The position numbers were made by a program, and so were the translations under genes. A stretch of 37,447 nucleotides of DNA from a virus (Duplodnaviria; Heunggongvirae; Uroviricota; Caudoviricetes), in the IMG/VR virus record IMGVR_UViG_2609459830_000021; one strand, written 5' to 3'. Every line of letters begins with the position of its first letter. Position 1 is the first letter of the stretch. The notes below the pieces were generated by a model. The model saw only the letters and a list, made by a program, of their open reading frames with translations, had not been told where the DNA came from and searched no databases. This document shows positions 16,061 to 28,811 of the stretch, piece after piece.

Positions 16061-16324
16061 GTCCATAAGAAAGCCCCTCCGGAGAGGGGCTGGAGAGTGG
16101 CGCTATGTGCCATTGCATGGTGCCGGGTGCCTCCCGGTGAGTTCAGCCCGGTGCCACTAAACCCGCGTCATTCTCGTTTTGATAATCAGAGATTATACCG
16201 TCACCAGTCGCCCCTCCGCTCAGGGGGATTCACCATGCAGTTTTTTCTAACAAATTCTCATCCGGGCAGACAACATTCAACTGACTTAATTGTGAGGTAT
16301 GTAACATTCCCGTTGAACGGATAC

Positions 16325-16604: not shown

Positions 16605-17039
16605 TTACGATCGTAAACTATTTTTTCGCTGATAAAATACAGAGCTTCTCCCTCCCGGCAATTCACGCTCAACATACCGATCCATCTCAAGCCTCACTCC
16701 CAGCATCATCAGCATGCCTTCAACAATCCCCTCCGCTTTGTGAAGGCGTTTACCTATACAGGTGTCAGAGCACCCATGTTTCCGTGCCAGCGCCATGAAC
16801 GTCTCCCCCAACACGTAGTAATCAACCAGCAAGTCATGCAGATCGCGATTGTTCCGGTAAAGGCGGGCTATGCACCCGCATATCACCATCGCATCATCGT
16901 CACAGCACTGTGGACGTGATTTTACTTTTTCGGGGATCAGTCCCTTAAATCCGGCAGCAATGGGCGACCATGTAACATCCTCATAGTTATTTACCGCCCA
17001 TGCCCCCCAGCGCTCAAGAACCTGCCGGATATCACGCAT
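16605..17039 (-). CDS. Q: late antiterminator Q (144 aa from ATG 17039)
   Basis: [36 protein letters not shown]…[16 protein letters not shown]…[23 protein letters not shown] matches the 21/82/933W-type Q family as recalled; start chosen at ATG overlapping ninH stop, alternative starts 17081 or 17138 possible. Confidence 0.7.
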
Positions 17040-17226
17040 CAGTATCTTTACCCCATCCGCGATGAACCATAAGGACGCCATTGACGACGGCGTGCTTTTT
17101 CGCATCTTTATCATCAATGTATTTTCTGACTGTAGCACGATTGCAGTTCAGTATTCTGGCGACTTCTGTCTGATTTCCCCTGGTGCAGATCAGTAATTCA
17201 GGTATCGTTTGAATTTTAGCATTCAT
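17032..17226 (-). CDS. ninH: NinH-like DNA-binding protein
   Basis: [55 protein letters not shown] parallels lambda NinH (…[42 protein letters not shown], from memory); ORF track start 17229 is TTG, ATG at 17226 used. Confidence 0.8.
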
Positions 17227-17588
17227 CAAATGTTCTCCAGTTCGGTGATTTTTATCCCCACTCTACCGCCAGGCACTTTCACGCCGCGAATTACGCGAAT
17301 GTCATCGAATTGCTCGTCGTCTTCCGCAAATCCGGCGTGGATAAGAGAGTCGAGTAAACCTTTCAGGATGTTATCGAGGTCGCGACGGCGGGAATCTGGT
17401 GGTTCAGCAATAATTGTGATGCGAAGTCGTGATTTAGTGAAAATGTCTAATCTGAGTTGCCGGATGATTTGCTGTACGTCTTTTCGGTATTTCTGGCCTT
17501 TATCGCTGATGTAGTACTGGCTTCCCCGTCTTCGCCAGTAGGTATTCACCGTCGGCGGCCAGGGAAGCACAAACTCATATTCATTCAT
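17226..17588 (-). CDS. rusA: RusA-type Holliday junction resolvase (120 aa)
   Basis: size and motifs (…VNTYWRRRG…DLDNILKGLLDSL…) typical of RusA; ATGA overlaps with neighbours. Confidence 0.75.
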   Translation of the reverse strand: MNEYEFVLPWPPTVNTYWRRRGSQYYISDKGQKYRKDVQQIIRQLRLDIFTKSRLRITIIAEPPDSRRRDLDNILKGLLDSLIHAGFAEDDEQFDDIRVIRGVKVPGGRVGIKITELENI

Positions 17589-17875
17589 GACTTAATCTTC
17601 CCCTCCTTCAGCAATATCGCCTGCGTCCTGATCACGCCTTCCAGGTGGTAAAGTCTGGCGTCGTTGTTGTCGAGAATTCGGGTGCGTCGGTCGATCTCCG
17701 CGTGGCAGTCACTACAAGCCCATGCACCGATCAGGTCGTCAGGCTTCATTCCCGTTCCGCAAATTCCAGCCATCCGGTAATGTGCCAGAACTGTCGTTTC
17801 AGGATTGCCATTGCATACGCCGTAAATCCGTACCTGGCATTCTCTGCCGCGCGCTTCTTTGCGTAGGTTAGCCAT
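17585..17875 (-). CDS. YbcO-like DUF1364 protein (putative zinc-binding nuclease, 96 aa)
   Basis: MANLRKEARGRECQVRIYGVCNGNPETTVLAHYRM…CSDCHAEIDRR resembles DLP12 YbcO as recalled. Confidence 0.65.
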   Translation of the reverse strand: MANLRKEARGRECQVRIYGVCNGNPETTVLAHYRMAGICGTGMKPDDLIGAWACSDCHAEIDRRTRILDNNDARLYHLEGVIRTQAILLKEGKIKS

Positions 17876-18603
17876 TAAGCAGCCTCCCCTGTTACTTTCA
17901 GCATTCCGTTATCGAGCGGCTTTCTGGTCAGCCACTGTTGACCACGCCCGGTGATTTTTGTGGTGAACGAGATCTGTATTCCGTGATTTGTATTGACCGC
18001 TGTTTCTTTCACTGTGAAATAGCCGCGATCCATATATTCCTGCATTGGCACATTGCGCCGGGAACCTGAAGCAATAAGGATTTTGTGATCGCGCATCCAC
18101 GCAAACAGTTTGTTTGGACCAATACCAACAACCTTTGCAAAGTTTCCAATCAAAATTCCGCTGGCCTCGCCAACTCGATCGGCAAACTCAACTTTAGGTG
18201 CTGCGAGAGCAAGCTGTTTCTCCAGTTCAGCCTTCTGGTCTTCAAGGTCGGCCGCAAGGCGCAATGCCTCAGAAAAGGTTTGTGGTATTTTCGCGGTTGC
18301 CCCTTCAAGCTCTCGCCAACGGTCAACAAGACGAGCGGTGAATTCCGGCGACAATTGGGCGACGACAATAATGCTGTCTCGCTTACCTTGTTCGCCTTCG
18401 AAGACGTAAGCCTCGACACTACGGCGCAGTCCTAAGTTATTGATTTTTTCGAAAACCTGCAATGCAGGAAGTTGAATAACTCCAGATTCAGCCAGGCGCT
18501 CTATTGATATTTTTACGTTATCTGGACGACTCCCCACCAACTCAGCGATTTCAATGCTGGTCATTTTGATGATGCTGCTATTTATCAGCTCATTCATTGT
18601 CAT
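17875..18603 (-). CDS. Rha-family regulatory protein with C-terminal antirepressor (ANT/KilAC-like) domain
   Basis: N-terminal …TSIEIAELVGSRPDNVK… Rha-like motif and C-terminal …QEYMDRGYFTVKE… KilAC-like motif (recalled families). Confidence 0.55.
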   Translation of the reverse strand: MTMNELINSSIIKMTSIEIAELVGSRPDNVKISIERLAESGVIQLPALQVFEKINNLGLRRSVEAYVFEGEQGKRDSIIVVAQLSPEFTARLVDRWRELEGATAKIPQTFSEALRLAADLEDQKAELEKQLALAAPKVEFADRVGEASGILIGNFAKVVGIGPNKLFAWMRDHKILIASGSRRNVPMQEYMDRGYFTVKETAVNTNHGIQISFTTKITGRGQQWLTRKPLDNGMLKVTGEAA

Positions 18604-18629
18604 GTCCTCTCATATTGAAAATTCAGCAA

Positions 18630-18656
18630 TAAAAAACCCAGCCGAAGCTGGGTTTG
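18630..18656 (-). terminator. Rho-independent terminator after ORF6N gene A
   Basis: minus-strand aacccagcttcggctgggtt followed by ttttattg. Confidence 0.6.
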
Positions 18657-18671
18657 TTAAGTTGTCAATTG

Positions 18672-19355
18672 TCAGTAGCGATGCAGTGAAGGCGGCAACT
18701 CTTTGTTCTTAAGCCTTTCCCATGCCAGAAGGTTCGTCGGCCCGTCAGGCTCATAAATATCTATATCCCGCGTGTGATTAATTAAAACGCCCCTCGCCCT
18801 CCCGATGATATACGAGAACTCATAGCCGTAGTCGTGGCATATGCCGGAATAGCCAGACTGAATCAGTTTTAATGCGGGATACAACTCACGGAACAATGCC
18901 TGTGAGCGGTTGGCATAATCCCACAGCCATACAAGGCTGTCTGTTTCTTTTGCGGAAAGCCCGTTGGGCTTCTTCTCTTGTTTGCCAGTATTTTTCTCGC
19001 ACTGGCTGAAATAGCAGTCTTCCAGTTTTTCGAACACATCCCACGCCTGATCGGTTTCTAGCATTTTGGCGTGACGGGCTGCGCCTCGTTCTGTCCAGAG
19101 GATGAGGGAGCGAACGTTACGGGCAATTTTCACAGAGTAGTTAAAAGCTACTCTGTGCTTGAACTCACGTAAAGTTTCACCTTCAAGTTTGAAGAAGTGT
19201 TTTTCCTCAATGAAACGACCTTTGTTTTCGTGGTGATTCTGGCGAATACGAATAGCTTCTGTGCCGTAAAGGTGCGCCAAAAGTTCGGTAGTGATAACGG
19301 GGATCTGCTTGTAAGTAATCGTGGAGAGTGTTTCAACAGAGATTTGAGTTGTCAT
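18672..19355 (-). CDS. ORF6N/KilA-N-type domain protein, paralogue A (putative antirepressor, 227 aa)
   Basis: shares [16 protein letters not shown] and [39 protein letters not shown] blocks with paralogue B (20274..20939); C-terminal halves unrelated. Confidence 0.6.
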
Positions 19356-19513
19356 AATGACGCCCTCGAGTGGTTTCTTAATAACTCACCACCGACGACG
19401 CCAATCGTCTGGTGGTGAACTGTGCAGGGTTGGCGTAACCGGGAAACCGACCGGCGCGGATCTCTCCGCCCCCACACAGCCCACCATAATTCAGATGTGC
19501 GCGTGCATACGAC

Positions 19514-19593
19514 AATAAAAAACACGCTCGCGGCGTGTATCTGTCGCGGTCTCTATCCAGGACGCCAATCCCGACGCCAGATTTTGCTGGCGC
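19514..19593 (-). ncRNA. candidate small RNA A (promoter, 5' hairpin, intrinsic terminator) upstream of ORF6N gene A
   Basis: minus strand: TTGACG (19624-19629), 18-nt spacer, TATATT (19600-19605); 5' hairpin cgccag-caaaat-ctggcg (19575-19592); terminator acacgc-cgcga-gcgtgt + UUUUUU (19516-19538); whole unit conserved in copy B. Confidence 0.45.
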
Positions 19594-19808
19594 GTGAGGA
19601 ATATAGCCCCGAATAAATCATCACGTCAATCACCTTGTTTTCCTCGCACGATGTCTTAGCCACCGGATATCCCACAGGTGAGCCGTGTAATTGAAGGCTT
19701 TAACGTCAGATTCTTTTGGGATTGGCCTGGGTTTATTTCTGGAACGTTTCGTTGGAAGGTAATTGCAGTTTTCACAGACTATATCGGTAATGCTTCGTCG
19801 CTGTCGTC

Positions 19809-20219
19809 TCATTCATACCTCCTGTCGGTAAATCTGACACCCTGCTCCACAGCCCAGGAAGTTGTGTACTCAATCAGGCTTGCCATACGCTTCACGCTCA
19901 TCTGCGCACTGCTTTCGCGGATATTGACGTATTCACCTTCAAGACCAGGCAAAACATCAGCTTCCTGTTTTGTCGCCACGGCATGACCGCTGATTAACAA
20001 AACTTTCCACTGTTCTGGTTTTAGCCATCTGCCGCACCACTGAACCTGTCGGGAGATATCAGCGACCATCGCGTGAAATTTGGCATTTTGATCGAGATTC
20101 CGCTTGTAATCGGTGATGCGGATCGTAACGGGTTTGTCTTTATCGAGAGTTGTTGCAAGGATGGCGTTAATGGCGAATTGTTGCTGCTGCTTACTTCGGA
20201 GGAAGATAGTCTGGTTCAT
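19809..20219 (-). CDS. ninB: NinB (Orf-family recombination mediator, 136 aa)
   Basis: …[41 protein letters not shown]… parallels lambda NinB (…VTIQERNRSLDQNRKLWACLGDVSRQVEWHGRWLDAESWK…, from memory). Confidence 0.8.
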
Positions 20220-20248
20220 TATTCCCTCTCACTGGATTTTCCCAACAA

Positions 20249-20270
20249 AAAAGGAGCCGAAGCTCCTTTA
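20249..20270 (-). terminator. Rho-independent terminator after ORF6N gene B
   Basis: minus-strand aaggagcttcggctcctt followed by ttttgttggg. Confidence 0.55.
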
Positions 20271-20273
20271 GTT

Positions 20274-20939
20274 TCAGAATTCAAATTGTCTTGCCCGCAG
20301 GCTTTTCAGCATTGGCATGGCCCGCTGGATAACGGAACTTGACATGTCGAGACGTGTTACCTCCCTCAGTAGCGCGTCTCTGTTCTTCGTCACCATGTAG
20401 ATGGTCTCAAACGCAATGTCATACAGCTTGTTCGTGTATGAGGAGTTCAGCTCTTTCATAATGGGATACAGGTGTTTGCTGATGTCCTGGGCTTTTTCCA
20501 TCCAGAGCTGCATGTAGCAAAGGAGGATGATTTCTTCGGCTGTGAATTGTGGCTGAATCTGCGGCTGCTGTTCGGTTGGTGCTGTTTTTCCCTGGCTGAA
20601 ATAGCAGTCTTCCAGTTTTTCGAATACCTCCCACGCCCGATCGGTTTCGAGCATTTTTGCGTGACGGGCTGCGCCGCGTTCTGTCCAGAGGATGAGGGAG
20701 CGGGCATTTTTACCAACTAACCCGATTGTTTCGGGTCTGTTCTTAAACTCGCGTAATTCGTTTTTTTCAATTTTAAAGTAATGCTTTCCGGGCATGAATC
20801 GCGTCGTGTTGTTCAGAAAGTTATCAGAAATGTTTTTGATTTTTGTTCCGTAAAGGTGAGCCAACAGTTCAGTAGTAATTACGGGGATCTGGTTATAGGT
20901 AACAGGGGAAAGGTTTTCGACAGAAATTTGAACAGCCAT
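20274..20939 (-). CDS. ORF6N/KilA-N-type domain protein, paralogue B (putative antirepressor, 221 aa)
   Basis: see paralogue A; ATG at 20939. Confidence 0.6.
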   Translation of the reverse strand: MAVQISVENLSPVTYNQIPVITTELLAHLYGTKIKNISDNFLNNTTRFMPGKHYFKIEKNELREFKNRPETIGLVGKNARSLILWTERGAARHAKMLETDRAWEVFEKLEDCYFSQGKTAPTEQQPQIQPQFTAEEIILLCYMQLWMEKAQDISKHLYPIMKELNSSYTNKLYDIAFETIYMVTKNRDALLREVTRLDMSSSVIQRAMPMLKSLRARQFEF

Positions 20940-21101
20940 AATGACCTCGCGTTTCGATAATTTTTACCTCGCCACCGTCAGGTGCTAATCATCGTGGTGG
21001 CGAACTGTGCGGGGTTAGCACTACCGGTCGAAACATCCGGCGAGCCTTTCGGCTCCCCCACACAGCCCGCCATAAATCGCGAATGTGACTGTGCTTAGCG
21101 C

Positions 21102-21178
21102 ATAAAAAAACCGCCAGCGCGGTTATGCACCGTTTCGATATCCGGGGTGCTAATCCCGACGCCAGGTTTTGCTGGCGC
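21102..21178 (-). ncRNA. candidate small RNA B (paralogue of sRNA A) upstream of ORF6N gene B
   Basis: minus strand: TTGACA (21209-21214), 18-nt spacer, TATATT (21185-21190); 5' hairpin cgccag-caaaac-ctggcg; terminator aaccgc-gctg-gcggtt + UUUUUUU (21104-21122). Confidence 0.45.
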
Positions 21179-21281
21179 GTGAGGAATATAGCCCCGAACA
21201 CGCGACGTTGTCAAACTGATGGCATTGCAGATCCCTACGCAATGTAACACTATGTGTTATACATTAATAACGGAACAAAAA

Positions 21282-21652
21282 ATGCGCATTTTTAAAAACG
21301 CCTGGTTTGAGCGATTTGCACGCAAAACAAAATATCCGACCAATCACTGCGCGAAATTGTTAAACAGGCTGATAACGGGCTTATCTCAGCAAACCTGGGT
21401 AACGGCGTTATCAAGCAACGTCTGCCACGAGTCGGTGGCGGCAAATCTGGCGGTTATCGCACAATCATTTTCTATCGCGTCGGCACAAGGGCCTTTTTCG
21501 TATATGCATACGCAAAAAATGAACGTGAAAATATAACCGCTACTGCGGAAAGTGCATTTCGGAAGGCGGCTCCTCACGTACTCAATCTAACAGATGAACA
21601 ACTGGCACAACTGATTCTACAGGGTCAGTTTACGGAGGTACCCAATGAGTAA
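21282..21652 (+). pseudogene. RelE/ParE-superfamily (HigB-like) toxin gene interrupted by a frameshift in an A-run
   Basis: frame a: MRIFKNAWFERFARK… (21282 onward); frame b from ~21325: KISDQSLREIVKQADNGLISANLGNGVIKQRLPRVGGGKSGGYRTIIFYRVGTRAFFVYAYAKNERENI…EVPNE ending TAA 21650-21652; the switch lies in aaaacaaaa (21324-21332). Confidence 0.6.
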
Positions 21653-21962
21653 AAATTACCGCAGTGATGCGCTTGCATCCGTACATGAAATGATGGAATC
21701 GCTTCATGATATCGGCGCAGTAACGAAACAGACTATGCGAGAATTCGATGAAACTTGTCTCCAGCCAGCGCCGGTAATGTCTCCGGAAAGGATCCGTGCA
21801 CTGCGCGAACGAGAGCATCTGTCTCAACCTGTTTTTGCCAGATACCTCAACGTCAGTAAAAACCTGATATCAGACTGGGAACGTGGTGTAAAACGGCCGG
21901 GAGGTGCCGCTCTTCGCCTTCTTTCAGTCGTAGAGAAAAACGGGATCCAGGTAATATCATGA
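21645..21962 (+). CDS. HTH (XRE-type) antitoxin, HigA-like (105 aa)
   Basis: ATG overlaps toxin stop (ATGAGTAA); C-terminal HTH …LSQPVFARYLNVSKNLISDWERGVKRP…; toxin-first order typical of higBA-type modules. Confidence 0.6.
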   Translation: MSKNYRSDALASVHEMMESLHDIGAVTKQTMREFDETCLQPAPVMSPERIRALREREHLSQPVFARYLNVSKNLISDWERGVKRPGGAALRLLSVVEKNGIQVIS

Positions 21963-21981
21963 TACTCCAATACAACAAAAC

Positions 21982-22000
21982 CCGCCGAAGCGGGTTTTCA
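21982..22000. terminator. bidirectional intrinsic terminator between convergent higA-like and doc genes
   Basis: cccgccgaagcggg flanked by aaaa and tttt; identical hairpin recurs at 22822-22840. Confidence 0.6.
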
Positions 22001-22012
22001 TTAGAAGCACCT

Positions 22013-22498
22013 TTAGTTTTGCTGTTCTATTTTAAGCTTGATAGTTTCATACAAAACAATAGTTGCGCCTGTTTTACATAATTCCCGGCTGTCATACGCA
22101 CGAGACCAATAACACAACCAGTTCTCGAGATCTTCTCGAGTATAGGTTTTGCAGGCCAGTCCCTCTGCCATTTCCACGATTTCATCGCCTGGTGCTGTTA
22201 ACTCATAGCCATTCAACAACAAGAAGACATAACCAGCCATCATAGCTGTTCGTTTGTTTGCATTAGCAAATGGATGATTCTGAATCAGACTTTCAATCAA
22301 TACTGATGCCAGTACAAACATGTCATTAGTCTGTTCATACCATCGAACCATGCTGGGACGAGACTGAGAAGAACTTAAATTATCAACACTCAGCACACTA
22401 ACAGGTTCATCTGGTGTTTGAAGCTCAATTAAAAGGCGATTAATTTCGGTAAGATCATCAAACGAAAGGTAGTGCACTCCTTCAACAATCTCAGCCAT
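22013..22498 (-). CDS. doc: Fic/Doc-family toxin (Doc-like, 161 aa from ATG 22498)
   Basis: Fic motif HPFANANKRTAMMAGYVFL (HxFx(D/N)xNKR); ORF track start 22507 is TTG, ATG 22498 preferred. Confidence 0.7.
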   Translation of the reverse strand: MAEIVEGVHYLSFDDLTEINRLLIELQTPDEPVSVLSVDNLSSSQSRPSMVRWYEQTNDMFVLASVLIESLIQNHPFANANKRTAMMAGYVFLLLNGYELTAPGDEIVEMAEGLACKTYTREDLENWLCYWSRAYDSRELCKTGATIVLYETIKLKIEQQN

Positions 22499-22516
22499 AG
22501 AGCACAATACCCATCA

Positions 22517-22696
22517 TTACACTTTTGAAAGTTCTTCCATTGCCTTCTCGTAACGAGAAAAACCGAAATCGAAAGCATTTTTCACCTGCTCACGATGAGT
22601 GCAATTTTCATCGATAGCCGGGCGCGGAGCTGCCACAACGCTTTTATCGCGAGGGGGAATAGTCAATCGCGGGTGTTTTTTTAGTGCGTAGCTCAT
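22517..22696 (-). CDS. putative antitoxin for Doc (59 aa from ATG 22696)
   Basis: small ORF immediately upstream of doc on same strand (phd-doc-type arrangement); ORF track start 22741 is TTG; family not recognised from sequence. Confidence 0.4.
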   Translation of the reverse strand: MSYALKKHPRLTIPPRDKSVVAAPRPAIDENCTHREQVKNAFDFGFSRYEKAMEELSKV

Positions 22697-22821
22697 TGGG
22701 TGTACCCTTACTTCTCCGTCCTGTTCTTTAACAAAAATCAAGTCAATACAAAATTAGTCAGGCTAATGTTGTTAGCATAGCCTAATACCAATCGTATTCA
22801 CAACCACAGTAAGTGAAAAAA

Positions 22822-22905: not shown

Positions 22906-23061
22906 TTACTCCTCAGGTTCGTAAGCTGTGAAGACAGCAACCTCCGTCTGACCGGTTCGGATTCGTACCTCGCAGAGGTCTTTCCTCGTTACCAGTGCCG
23001 TCACTACGACGGTAATACAGATGACGATCAGGGCGACTAACATCGCCTTTTGCTGCTTCAT
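22906..23061 (-). CDS. hok: Hok/Gef-family type I toxin (51 aa)
   Basis: MKQQKAMLVALIVICITVVVTALVTRKDLCEVRIRTGQTEVAVFTAYEPEE is near-identical to HokD/RelF as recalled; overlapping upstream in-frame ORF to 23118 corresponds to mok. Confidence 0.85.
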   Translation of the reverse strand: MKQQKAMLVALIVICITVVVTALVTRKDLCEVRIRTGQTEVAVFTAYEPEE

Positions 23062-23104
23062 AGCCTGCTTCTCCTTGCCTTTCGGCGCGTAAGAGGCTAA
23101 CCTA

Positions 23105-23170
23105 CATATGTCTAGCATGAAATTGGCCTCAGATTAATGTTAGGCGTCTTGCAGGACGCGTAATGTTAAC
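23105..23170 (+). ncRNA. sok: candidate Sok-type antisense RNA overlapping mok translation initiation region
   Basis: expected by hok/sok architecture; plus-strand TTGCCT-17-TAACCT promoter-like elements near 23085-23112 and hairpin gcgtc-ttgcag-gacgc at 23145-23160; boundaries approximate. Confidence 0.3.
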
Positions 23171-23306
23171 TGGGGCTTTTCTCTGTCTGCCTTACGGTGG
23201 CATGCCCGAGGCAGACAGCCTCAAGCACCCGCAGCAATTCTACTTAACTCTCGCTTTACCGCAAACCGTTTTTACCCGATATGGGAATTCCCATATCGTA
23301 ATGAAT

Positions 23307-27361: not shown

Positions 27362-27658
27362 TCAGATATTCATCAGGATTTGCTCAGAACGTCCGGCCCC
27401 AACCGGACGTTTTTTATTTGCATGAACGTTAATGGCATGCTGGAAAGCCCGGCTGATCGGACTGATATCAGATGCCATCTGGAACGCGCATAAAATCGCC
27501 GCGATGTATCGCCAGTCGGTACGACTGACCTTCGATTCATGGCAGCCAATCATCTTTGCCAGTCCCCTTTGCGTCAGAGCTGACAGGTTGATGAGTAAAT
27601 CTGTTTCTGCGCGATCAACGTCACGCTGGGATAGTTTGCTGTAACTTGTTTGTGTCAT
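27362..27658 (-). CDS. cII: CII-like transcriptional activator
   Basis: C-terminus …NKKRPVGAGRSEQILMNI parallels lambda CII …NKKRPAATERSEQIQMEF (from memory); position downstream of cro. Confidence 0.7.
   Translation of the reverse strand: MTQTSYSKLSQRDVDRAETDLLINLSALTQRGLAKMIGCHESKVSRTDWRYIAAILCAFQMASDISPISRAFQHAINVHANKKRPVGAGRSEQILMNI

Positions 27659-28094: not shown

Positions 28095-28811
<717 letters not shown>

Follow-up and report, generated by a model that had tools for sequence, protein, structure and literature searches.

What is the function of the two non-coding blocks that each precede an antirepressor-like gene in the IMG/VR virus record IMGVR_UViG_2609459830_000021? This record, a stretch of 37,447 nucleotides (nt) that was analyzed as a whole and is called the window here, is a lambdoid prophage of Escherichia coli. 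An initial annotation made from the sequence alone had described the blocks and the ORF6N-domain genes behind them as two paralogous modules, designated A and B below. It had left two explanations side by side: a c4/IsrK-like regulatory RNA controlling an antirepressor, or paired operators at which each ORF6N protein regulates its own gene. The former was borne out. Both modules match three Rfam families above their gathering thresholds, and both blocks are copies of a known phage RNA switch, that of the P1 c4 antisense RNA and Gifsy-1 IsrK. The RefSeq annotation contains no RNA feature in either block upstream of the antirepressor genes.

Three RNA families in each leader

On the minus strand, the leaders of A and B have one order in common: a sigma70-like promoter, a terminated small RNA of ~77 nt, a structured RNA of ~76 nt and a ribosome-binding site. 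We scanned the whole window with Rfam models at curated gathering thresholds (isrK, 50 bits; C4, 45 bits; c4-a1b1, 46.7 bits), using Gifsy-1 and P1, both experimentally studied, as positive controls. The isrK family (RF01394) matched at 19517–19593 (75.5 bits) and 21104–21178 (74.3 bits), c4-a1b1 (RF03163) at 19554–19606 (50.5 bits) and 21139–21191 (47.4 bits), and the C4 antisense RNA family (RF01695) at 19408–19491 (66.7 bits) and 20993–21077 (75.1 bits). Gifsy-1 IsrK itself scored 79.3 bits, and the C4 model gave 68.8 bits for P1 c4 and 69 bits for Gifsy-1. All three families matched Gifsy-1 in the same order as in the window modules; P1 matched C4 and c4-a1b1 and did not reach the isrK gathering score. 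In addition, an AnrP-type antirepressor gene lies downstream of each IsrK unit, as is characteristic of the isrK family, with the connecting read-through being predicted. The minimum free energy folds of c4-A (−44 kcal/mol, z −3.9) and c4-B (−48.6 kcal/mol, z −6.2) agree with the family model. The elements of module A are as follows.

19600–19629, minus strand: promoter (TTGACG, 18-nt spacer, TATATT; 10 of 12 consensus matches)
19517–19593, minus strand: IsrK-A small RNA, located by Rfam isrK, helix covariation and terminator scan
19593–19574, minus strand: IsrK-A 5' hairpin
19568–19562, minus strand: IsrK-A a1, core UUGGCGU, hairpin-presented within the 10-mer 19570–19561
19553–19548, minus strand: IsrK-A b1, GAGACC
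19538–19522, minus strand: IsrK-A intrinsic terminator, followed by a U-tract
19410–19485, minus strand: c4-A antisense RNA with a 16-bp closing stem, two hairpins (hairpin 1, GCGGA-GAGA-UCCGC) and a 3' ACCA tail
19448–19443, minus strand: c4-A b', GGUUUC, in the hairpin-2 loop
19436–19430, minus strand: c4-A a', ACGCCAA, in an unpaired junction
19387–19417, minus strand: a2 hairpin (CACCACC/GGUGGUG) with the a2 core UUGGCGU (19404–19398; 10-mer 19406–19397) in its loop
19353–19377, minus strand: translation-initiation region of antirepressor A, with b2 GAAACC (19377–19372), Shine-Dalgarno sequence GAGGG (19367–19363) and ATG (19355–19353)
18672–19355, minus strand: antirepressor A, 227 amino acids (aa), ORF6N and P22_AR_C domains (Pfam)
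18634–18655, minus strand: intrinsic terminator closing module A, 9-bp stem and T-run

Module B consists of the corresponding elements.

21185–21214, minus strand: promoter (TTGACA, 18-nt spacer, TATATT; 11 of 12 consensus matches)
21104–21178, minus strand: IsrK-B small RNA with 5' hairpin, a1, b1 and terminator
21153–21147, minus strand: IsrK-B a1, core UUAGCAC, within the 10-mer 21155–21146
21138–21132, minus strand: IsrK-B b1, UCGAAAC
21124–21109, minus strand: IsrK-B terminator, followed by a U-tract
20995–21071, minus strand: c4-B antisense RNA with a 3' ACCA tail; its hairpin 1, GAGCC-GAAA-GGCUC, is the GNRA hairpin of the initial annotation
21034–21028, minus strand: c4-B b', GUUUCGA, in a loop
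21021–21015, minus strand: c4-B a', GUGCUAA, in a junction
20937–20990, minus strand: antirepressor B leader, with the a2 10-mer at 20990–20981 (core 20988–20982)
20957–20937, minus strand: initiation region of antirepressor B, with b2 UCGAAAC (20957–20951), Shine-Dalgarno sequence GAGG (20948–20945) and ATG (20939–20937)
20274–20939, minus strand: antirepressor B, 221 aa, ORF6N and P22_AR_C domains (Pfam)
20250–20269, minus strand: intrinsic terminator closing module B, 8-bp stem and T-run

All features described in the initial annotation were found again at the same coordinates on the minus strand, among them the GNRA hairpins and the long hairpin before each gene (CACCACC/GGUGGUG in A, CGCCACC/GGUGGCG in B). 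Pfam confirmed ORF6N in both proteins and added the P22_AR_C domain. The promoters are the two best among only four promoter-like sites that a consensus scan found in 18500–21700, the module A promoter is kept in homologous leaders, and a terminator scan detected both IsrK terminators with their T-run. The isrK model begins at 19593 in module A and at 21178 in module B, where transcription would start; numbering from 19593 reproduces the published Gifsy-1 positions.

The small-RNA unit that the initial annotation had drawn from promoter to terminator is real and corresponds to IsrK, but each leader contains a second RNA: c4, the actual antisense RNA, is situated downstream of the terminator and ahead of the gene. 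The GNRA hairpin had been listed separately from the long hairpin, but it and the 5' arm of the latter are parts of this one RNA of 76–77 nt, which is closed by a 16-bp stem. The complementarity of the repeated 10-mers to c4 had likewise been missed. The 10-mer GACGCCAATC occurs exactly twice in the window, at 19397 and 19561 in module A, and GGTGCTAATC exactly twice, at 20981 and 21146 in module B; on the RNA strand they read GAUUGGCGUC and GAUUAGCACC, respectively. Chance expectation in the window is 0.14 and 0.04, and two matches were reached in 0 of 100 shuffles. Given that each 7-nt core exactly complements its a', the 10-mers are the a1 site (in the loop of the second IsrK hairpin) and the a2 site (in the loop of the a2 hairpin) of P1 nomenclature. 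A second module-specific pair of sites, b1 and b2, had also gone unnoticed and is complementary to the c4 hairpin loop b'. In module A, the loop GGUUUC pairs with b1 GAGACC (one G.U pair) and with b2 GAAACC, and the Shine-Dalgarno sequence follows 4 nt downstream of b2. In module B, the loop GUUUCGA is complementary to UCGAAAC at both b1 and b2, the latter lying 2 nt upstream of the Shine-Dalgarno sequence.

Covariation in homologous leaders

Homologous leaders were drawn from IMG/VR contigs, GTDB genomes, Gifsy-1 and P1, which gave 210 modules, of which 89 were unique; they stem from Escherichia, Shigella and Salmonella (Gifsy-1) as well as from Enterobacter, Lelliottia and Leminorella genomes. 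Column-based covariation was evaluated in an alignment of 83 distinct leaders. The proposed structure, comprising the IsrK hairpins, the terminator and c4, was paired in 98.7% of cells with 13 pairs changed on both sides, whereas only 27–43% were paired in a control in which the partners were slid by 1–3 columns. The 16-bp closing stem of c4 was paired in 99.6% of cells (6 pairs changed on both sides), and c4 hairpin 1 covaried at all 5 of its 5 pairs. Between the RNAs, a1:a' was paired in 100% and a':a2 in 99.8% of 581 cells, with 5 of 7 positions covarying in each case. In one lineage (L050), a single-base change is seen in all three elements, GCGUC to GCAUC in both targets and ACGCC to AUGCC in c4. 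In the a2 hairpin, 95.4% of cells were paired (83 homologues), and a single pair covaried, the one already seen in the initial annotation. Stem changes preserved pairing in every helix tested, in line with the compensatory differences noticed earlier between A and B.

The mismatched a':a2 cell traces to one locus (L182, 7953–8198), which is chimeric: its a1 and a' are of the GGAAC/GUUCC type and its a2 is of the GGCGU type. L182 and L097 have an aligned leader without an antirepressor start, and L102 departs from the family downstream of a2; these are chimeric or decayed modules. A more divergent cassette subgroup from Enterobacter genomes (L083–L086, L090, L092 and L093) lacks the U-tract terminator between a1/b1 and c4 and precedes a different protein with the N-terminus MTTSNALFTTPFDH; even so, the a and b boxes and c4 match within each cassette.

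The homologues comprise 29 combinations of a' and b', for which 8 variants of a' and 21 of b' are used. Reassortment between the two is evident from L009 and L068, in which one b type accompanies different a types. Because indels made the MAFFT columns unreliable at the b sites, we used an alignment-free longest-complement test with a non-cognate control. Cognate a complementarity was 7–8 nt in 29 of 29 types versus a non-cognate mean of 3.65 nt, and cognate b complementarity averaged 6.4 nt versus 3.8 nt. With G.U pairs allowed, b':b2 complementarity was 6–10 nt in all 29 types. Over 25 types, the median distance from the end of b2 is 0 nt to the Shine-Dalgarno sequence and 11 nt to the start codon, so that the position of b2 is conserved although its sequence varies.

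These results decide against the operators proposed as the second explanation, by which the 10-mers would be paired DNA sites for module-specific transcriptional autoregulation by the ORF6N protein that the module encodes. A DNA-binding function is predicted for the ORF6N domain, and two copies of the 10-mer per module, ~165 bp apart, would suit such a role. However, variation is confined to the 7-nt core, where it follows a third element, located in c4, in exact Watson-Crick register. The sites are non-palindromic, and the two copies are found in the loops of RNA hairpins, downstream of the promoter. In addition, leader types and antirepressor proteins reassort: elsewhere, B-type leaders occupy the module A position, before proteins 79–84% identical to protein A. 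Since the 10-mer cores covary with the complementary c4 stretch in the 83 distinct homologues, protein operators were rejected; we regard them as very improbable. That the blocks are functionless, decayed repeat or recombination debris of the nin region is hardly conceivable. This region is highly mosaic among lambdoid phages, and the few loci with chimeric or truncated modules (L182, L102 and L097) would fit such an origin, but it is at odds with the structure-preserving covariation in every helix tested, with three Rfam families above threshold and with the high transcription of the homologous RNAs, IsrK and STnc1160, in Salmonella lysogens (PMC7067206).

Proposed control of the antirepressor genes

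The family membership, the structures and the three-way complementarity with its covariation lead us to consider it likely that the blocks represent self-contained immI-type cassettes like those of P1 c4 and Gifsy-1 IsrK, each controlling its antirepressor gene at the RNA level. In this scheme, a constitutive sigma70 promoter would give rise to transcripts that are mostly halted at the intrinsic terminator, producing IsrK of ~77 nt with a1 and b1. Read-through transcripts would reach c4, the RNA of 76–77 nt with its 16-bp stem and tRNA-like 3' ACCA. Production of c4 would depend on this read-through because no promoter-like site separates the IsrK terminator from c4 in the consensus scan of both modules, a result that led us to reject a separate c4 promoter. 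The AU|GG 5' junction, the acceptor-like stem, the ACCA tail (present in A and B; ACCC in others) and the P1 precedent suggest that c4 is probably excised by RNase P; for P1 c4, maturation by this enzyme is attributed to Hartmann et al. 1995, as cited in PMC11143913.

Experiments in P1 and Gifsy-1 suggest how the processed RNA may act. The a' site in the junction and the b' site in the hairpin-2 loop, both unpaired, would bind a2 and b2 in the antirepressor leader. Given that b2 abuts the Shine-Dalgarno sequence, this pairing would occlude the ribosome-binding site and block translation of the ORF6N/P22_AR_C antirepressor, for which P1 provides the precedent. In module A, CACCACC serves both as the 5' arm of the a2 hairpin and as the 3' end of the c4 stem, which would make the two folds mutually exclusive. 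IsrK would compete for a' and b' because it carries copies of the a and b sites, and abundant IsrK would turn antirepressor translation on. The antirepressor would then inactivate a phage repressor and favor induction. The precedent for relief is Gifsy-1, where IsrK supplied in trans increased anrP translation ~139-fold, the IsrK mutants G28A and G31A had no trans-activating effect, and the compensatory pairs G28/C162 and G31/C159 were published (PMC4825925). These pairs are a1:a' base pairs, as the numbering of module A and that of Gifsy-1 are identical. STnc1160 was lost upon deletion of the isrK promoter, and both Hfq binding and trans-activation by IsrK come from Salmonella experiments only (PMC4825925).

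A leader hairpin sequestering the Shine-Dalgarno sequence was considered as a further part of the mechanism and rejected: the module A leader folds at −23 kcal/mol (z −2.4), but module B gives a z of −0.65. In the module A leader downstream of c4 (19350–19415, minus strand), the a2 box is predicted to pair with GGCGUCA between the Shine-Dalgarno sequence and the AUG.

Several observations weigh against control by c4 and an IsrK decoy. IsrK alone is thermodynamically unexceptional (z −0.6 and −1.5). In Gifsy-1, the a1 mutations G28A and G31A raise basal anrP translation in cis, which is the opposite of what a pure decoy predicts, and constitutive STnc1160 together with IsrK causes stronger, not weaker, growth arrest (PMC4825925). 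Discrimination between A and B is poor at the b sites, which have a common GAAAC/GUUUC core: cognate b2 duplexes have energies of −8.8 and −8.9 kcal/mol versus −8.0 and −6.1 kcal/mol for non-cognate ones. Moreover, a' of c4-B (GUGCUAA, 21015–21021) forms 7 pairs, three of them G.U, with the a sites of A (19398–19404 and 19562–19568).

The authors of the Gifsy-1 study explain the raised basal translation in these a1 mutants by a cis fold in which the read-through RNA is silent (PMC4825925). In their published model, the read-through isrK-orf-ant mRNA is silent in cis with its a1 region paired to the 3' half of the c4 region. IsrK in trans exposes the ribosome-binding site of a small open reading frame (ORF) that starts at the 5' end of c4, translation of this ORF is coupled to that of the antirepressor, and no repressor function is assigned to the processed c4-like RNA. 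The model is supported by native gels, compensatory mutations, SPA-tagged orf45 and start- and stop-codon mutants (PMC4825925), the cis effect of the two mutations fits it better than a decoy, and the ATG at +107 is retained in both window modules (19487 and 21073). However, the small ORF is 33 (A) or 31 (B) codons long, and it ends 31 (A) or 39 (B) nt before the antirepressor ATG without an ATGA overlap. Its length ranges from 8 to 76 codons across the 29 types, and L099 and L200 have TTG instead of ATG. Taken alone, the model also leaves the a2/a' covariation and the position of b2 at the antirepressor's own ribosome-binding site unexplained, and we think it possible but doubtful as the account of these leaders. 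The cis model and trans repression are non-exclusive: as the cis a1 mutations and extra STnc1160 misfit a purely trans decoy, a cis fold of the read-through RNA probably contributes, and it may add to trans repression by c4.

The initial annotation had noted that no ORF is conserved over the blocks, and this held for the frames in A and B, which differ in frame and end. A conserved small protein equivalent to orf45 was also rejected, as the ATG-initiated frame varies in length, frame and end over the 29 types; the Gifsy-1 authors describe the orf45 amino-acid sequence as variable (PMC4825925).

The leaders of A and B align with a mean column identity of 81%, and their differences cluster in a few short boxes and at compensating stem positions. 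The main difference lies in the a sequences (UUGGCGU versus UUAGCAC); the b sequences overlap in part. Cognate a2 duplexes have energies of −10.3 (A) and −9.0 (B) kcal/mol, compared with −3.3 kcal/mol for c4-A on B and −4.9 kcal/mol for c4-B on A. The cross-pairing is asymmetric, as c4-A meets A.C/C.A mismatches on the a sites of B. To judge from these pairings, A and B look largely, but not fully, orthogonal, since the b core is shared and c4-B can pair with the a sites of A via G.U. The prophage would therefore have two largely independent channels, comparable to P1/P7 heteroimmunity, which rests on short complementary boxes according to the summary in PMC12197685.

Calling the modules paralogous overstated their relationship, since phages carry mosaic, reassorted combinations of leader type and antirepressor gene. 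Because of this reassortment and because proteins A and B are only 48% identical, a simple local duplication is not the obvious origin of the pair. Another prophage fragment (L105, 3958–4747 and 7220–8015) also has two IsrK/c4/ORF6N cassettes; they have the same a' (ACGCCAA) and different b' loops (UUUCCGUAC versus AUGUUUCGA), and the second lies downstream of a Q gene, like that of Gifsy-1.

More speculatively, and with considerable doubt, the a and b boxes may form a combinatorial address code common to many enterobacterial lambdoid prophages, through which IsrK or c4 of one prophage cross-activates or cross-represses the antirepressors of other phages, resident or incoming, that have an a or b box in common with it. 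If so, two cassettes with different addresses would let one prophage both send and receive on two channels, the predicted one-way G.U pairing between c4-B and the a sites of A would create a hierarchy between them, and an RNA layer of prophage-prophage crosstalk and heteroimmunity would extend far beyond P1/P7.

Genomic setting, distribution and known systems

The two cassettes lie in the early-right operon of the prophage, which runs on the minus strand; a repressor gene lies on the plus strand.

28098–28811, plus strand: LexA-like CI repressor
27362–27658, minus strand: CII, in the early-right operon together with the replication genes, the nin region and Q
19809–20219, minus strand: ninB, in the nin region together with ninE (19630–19812), a KilAC protein (17875–18603), YbcO and RusA
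16605–17138, minus strand: Q antiterminator gene

The genes ninB and ninE lie between the two antirepressor genes. Antirepressor A, named 'phage antirepressor Ant' in RefSeq, is 67% identical to Gifsy-1 AnrP over 126 aa, and antirepressor B is 80% identical to it over 144 aa, in both cases in the N-terminal domain. Nine complete genomes, including FORC_069 and ML35, are 100% identical to the window over 18604–21300.

Several neighboring features were observed in addition. The KilAC-domain antirepressor gene follows immediately after the module A terminator, and over 179 aa its product has 53% identity with the C-terminal half of Ant1, which is the target of c4 control in P1. Just downstream of the Q gene, Rfam STnc100 matches at 16061–16266 on the minus strand (165 bits), presumably as a late-promoter leader RNA. 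A hok/sok type I toxin-antitoxin system occupies 22906–23230 on the minus strand, with sok (RF01794, 114 bits) at 23056–23230 and a hok-like ORF, hokD in RefSeq, at 22906–23118. Two further toxin-antitoxin-like pairs adjoin module B within 21219–22741: a RelE/ParE-like toxin and a helix-turn-helix (HTH) protein on the plus strand (~21314–21652 and ~21645–21962, RefSeq coordinates), divergent from the module B promoter, and a Doc/Fic toxin (22013–22507, minus strand) with a small ORF upstream.

The RNA cassette is catalogued and very common, and it represents no new kind of mechanism. A search restricted to the leader found a match in 2534 of 5426 complete E. coli genomes (~47%), a single genome having as many as six, and RefSeq gives no annotation for the cassette. 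Leaders 98–99% identical to that of module A are present in many Shiga toxin 1 (Stx1)- and Stx2-converting phages (99% in Stx1a and Stx2 phages). The Stx phage Phi24B has a related leader with 75% identity upstream of ant; the authors of a study in which this gene was knocked out proposed that ant promotes efficient induction (PMC3064807). Antirepressors decide the timing of prophage induction, that of Stx-converting phages included, and specificity boxes that can be read from the sequence would make the mutual influence among the prophages of a polylysogen predictable.

For APSE phages, authors who also analyzed the a' and b' regions have reported that c4 and isrK occur together. In our literature search, the only mechanistic work naming both IsrK and STnc1160 was the Gifsy-1 paper, which draws a comparison with the P4 CI RNA and not with P1 c4 (PMC4825925), and a 2025 review treats IsrK and c4 as separate entries. 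To this, our analysis makes modest additions: the equivalence of the two at the nucleotide level, the number of a and b variants, and the finding that a single prophage contains two cassettes with different addresses.

Among the known systems, P22 immI resembles the window in the P22_AR_C domain of the controlled protein and in antirepressor control in a lambdoid phage, but it uses the protein repressors Mnt and Arc plus sar RNA, which is antisense to the start of ant. The whole-window Rfam scan gave no match to sar, and no Arc/Mnt-type (ribbon-helix-helix) match was obtained among the ORFs scanned in 16605–21962, which include ninB, ninE, the KilAC protein, the RelE-like ORF and the HTH protein. 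The P4 CI RNA with seqA/seqC, a structural analogue in the view of the Gifsy-1 authors (PMC4825925), is like c4, according to the literature, in being processed from an untranslated leader and pairing with one site upstream and one downstream. It differs in causing premature transcription termination of replication genes and is not known at an antirepressor ribosome-binding site.

The P1/P7 immI operon (c4, icd, ant1/ant2) was described by Citron and Schuster 1990, as summarized in PMC12197685. The P1 record NC_005856 gives the order promoter P1c4, a1, b1, c4 RNA of 77 nt, a2, and b2 beside the icd ribosome-binding site. The window modules agree with P1 in having a promoter, 5' hairpin, a1, b1, terminator-like hairpin, c4, a2, and b2 at a ribosome-binding site. 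In both, a' (CUGUCAA in P1) occupies the junction that joins hairpin 2 to the closing stem, and the loop of hairpin 2 contains b'. The ends of c4, a G preceded by AU and a 3'-terminal CC(A), are in both cases compatible with processing by RNase P. They differ in that P1 b2 covers the ribosome-binding site of icd, through which ant is expressed, whereas b2 in the window lies directly at that of the antirepressor. No icd-like ORF is present in the modules, where the antirepressor ATG directly follows b2 and the Shine-Dalgarno sequence; the c4-icd-ant arrangement characterizes the P1 operon rather than the RNA family. The promoter region of P1 also has a C1 operator, whereas no operator was identified in the window modules, and P1 controls the KilAC-type Ant1, whereas the window modules control an ORF6N/P22_AR_C protein.

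The isrK-orf45(STnc1160)-anrP unit of Gifsy-1 (Hershko-Shalev et al. 2016, PMC4825925) has the three Rfam families in the same order as the window, together with the same promoter, 5' hairpin, terminator and c4 stem. Its numbering is that of module A (a1 26–32, a' 158–164, ATG +107), as is its a specificity (UUGGCGU/ACGCCAA), while its b specificity (CGGUGAU) differs. In Gifsy-1, the cassette sits between the Q-like antQ upstream and IsrJ downstream, whereas the window cassettes lie upstream of Q in the nin region, and the window Rfam scan gave no match to isrJ. The 45-codon ORF of Gifsy-1 is coupled via the ATGA overlap that the window frames lack, and the window, unlike Gifsy-1, has two cassettes in a single prophage. 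Gifsy-1 orf45/STnc1160 is a c4 homologue; Salmonella IsrK/orf45 and P1 c4, usually described apart, map onto each other nucleotide for nucleotide here.

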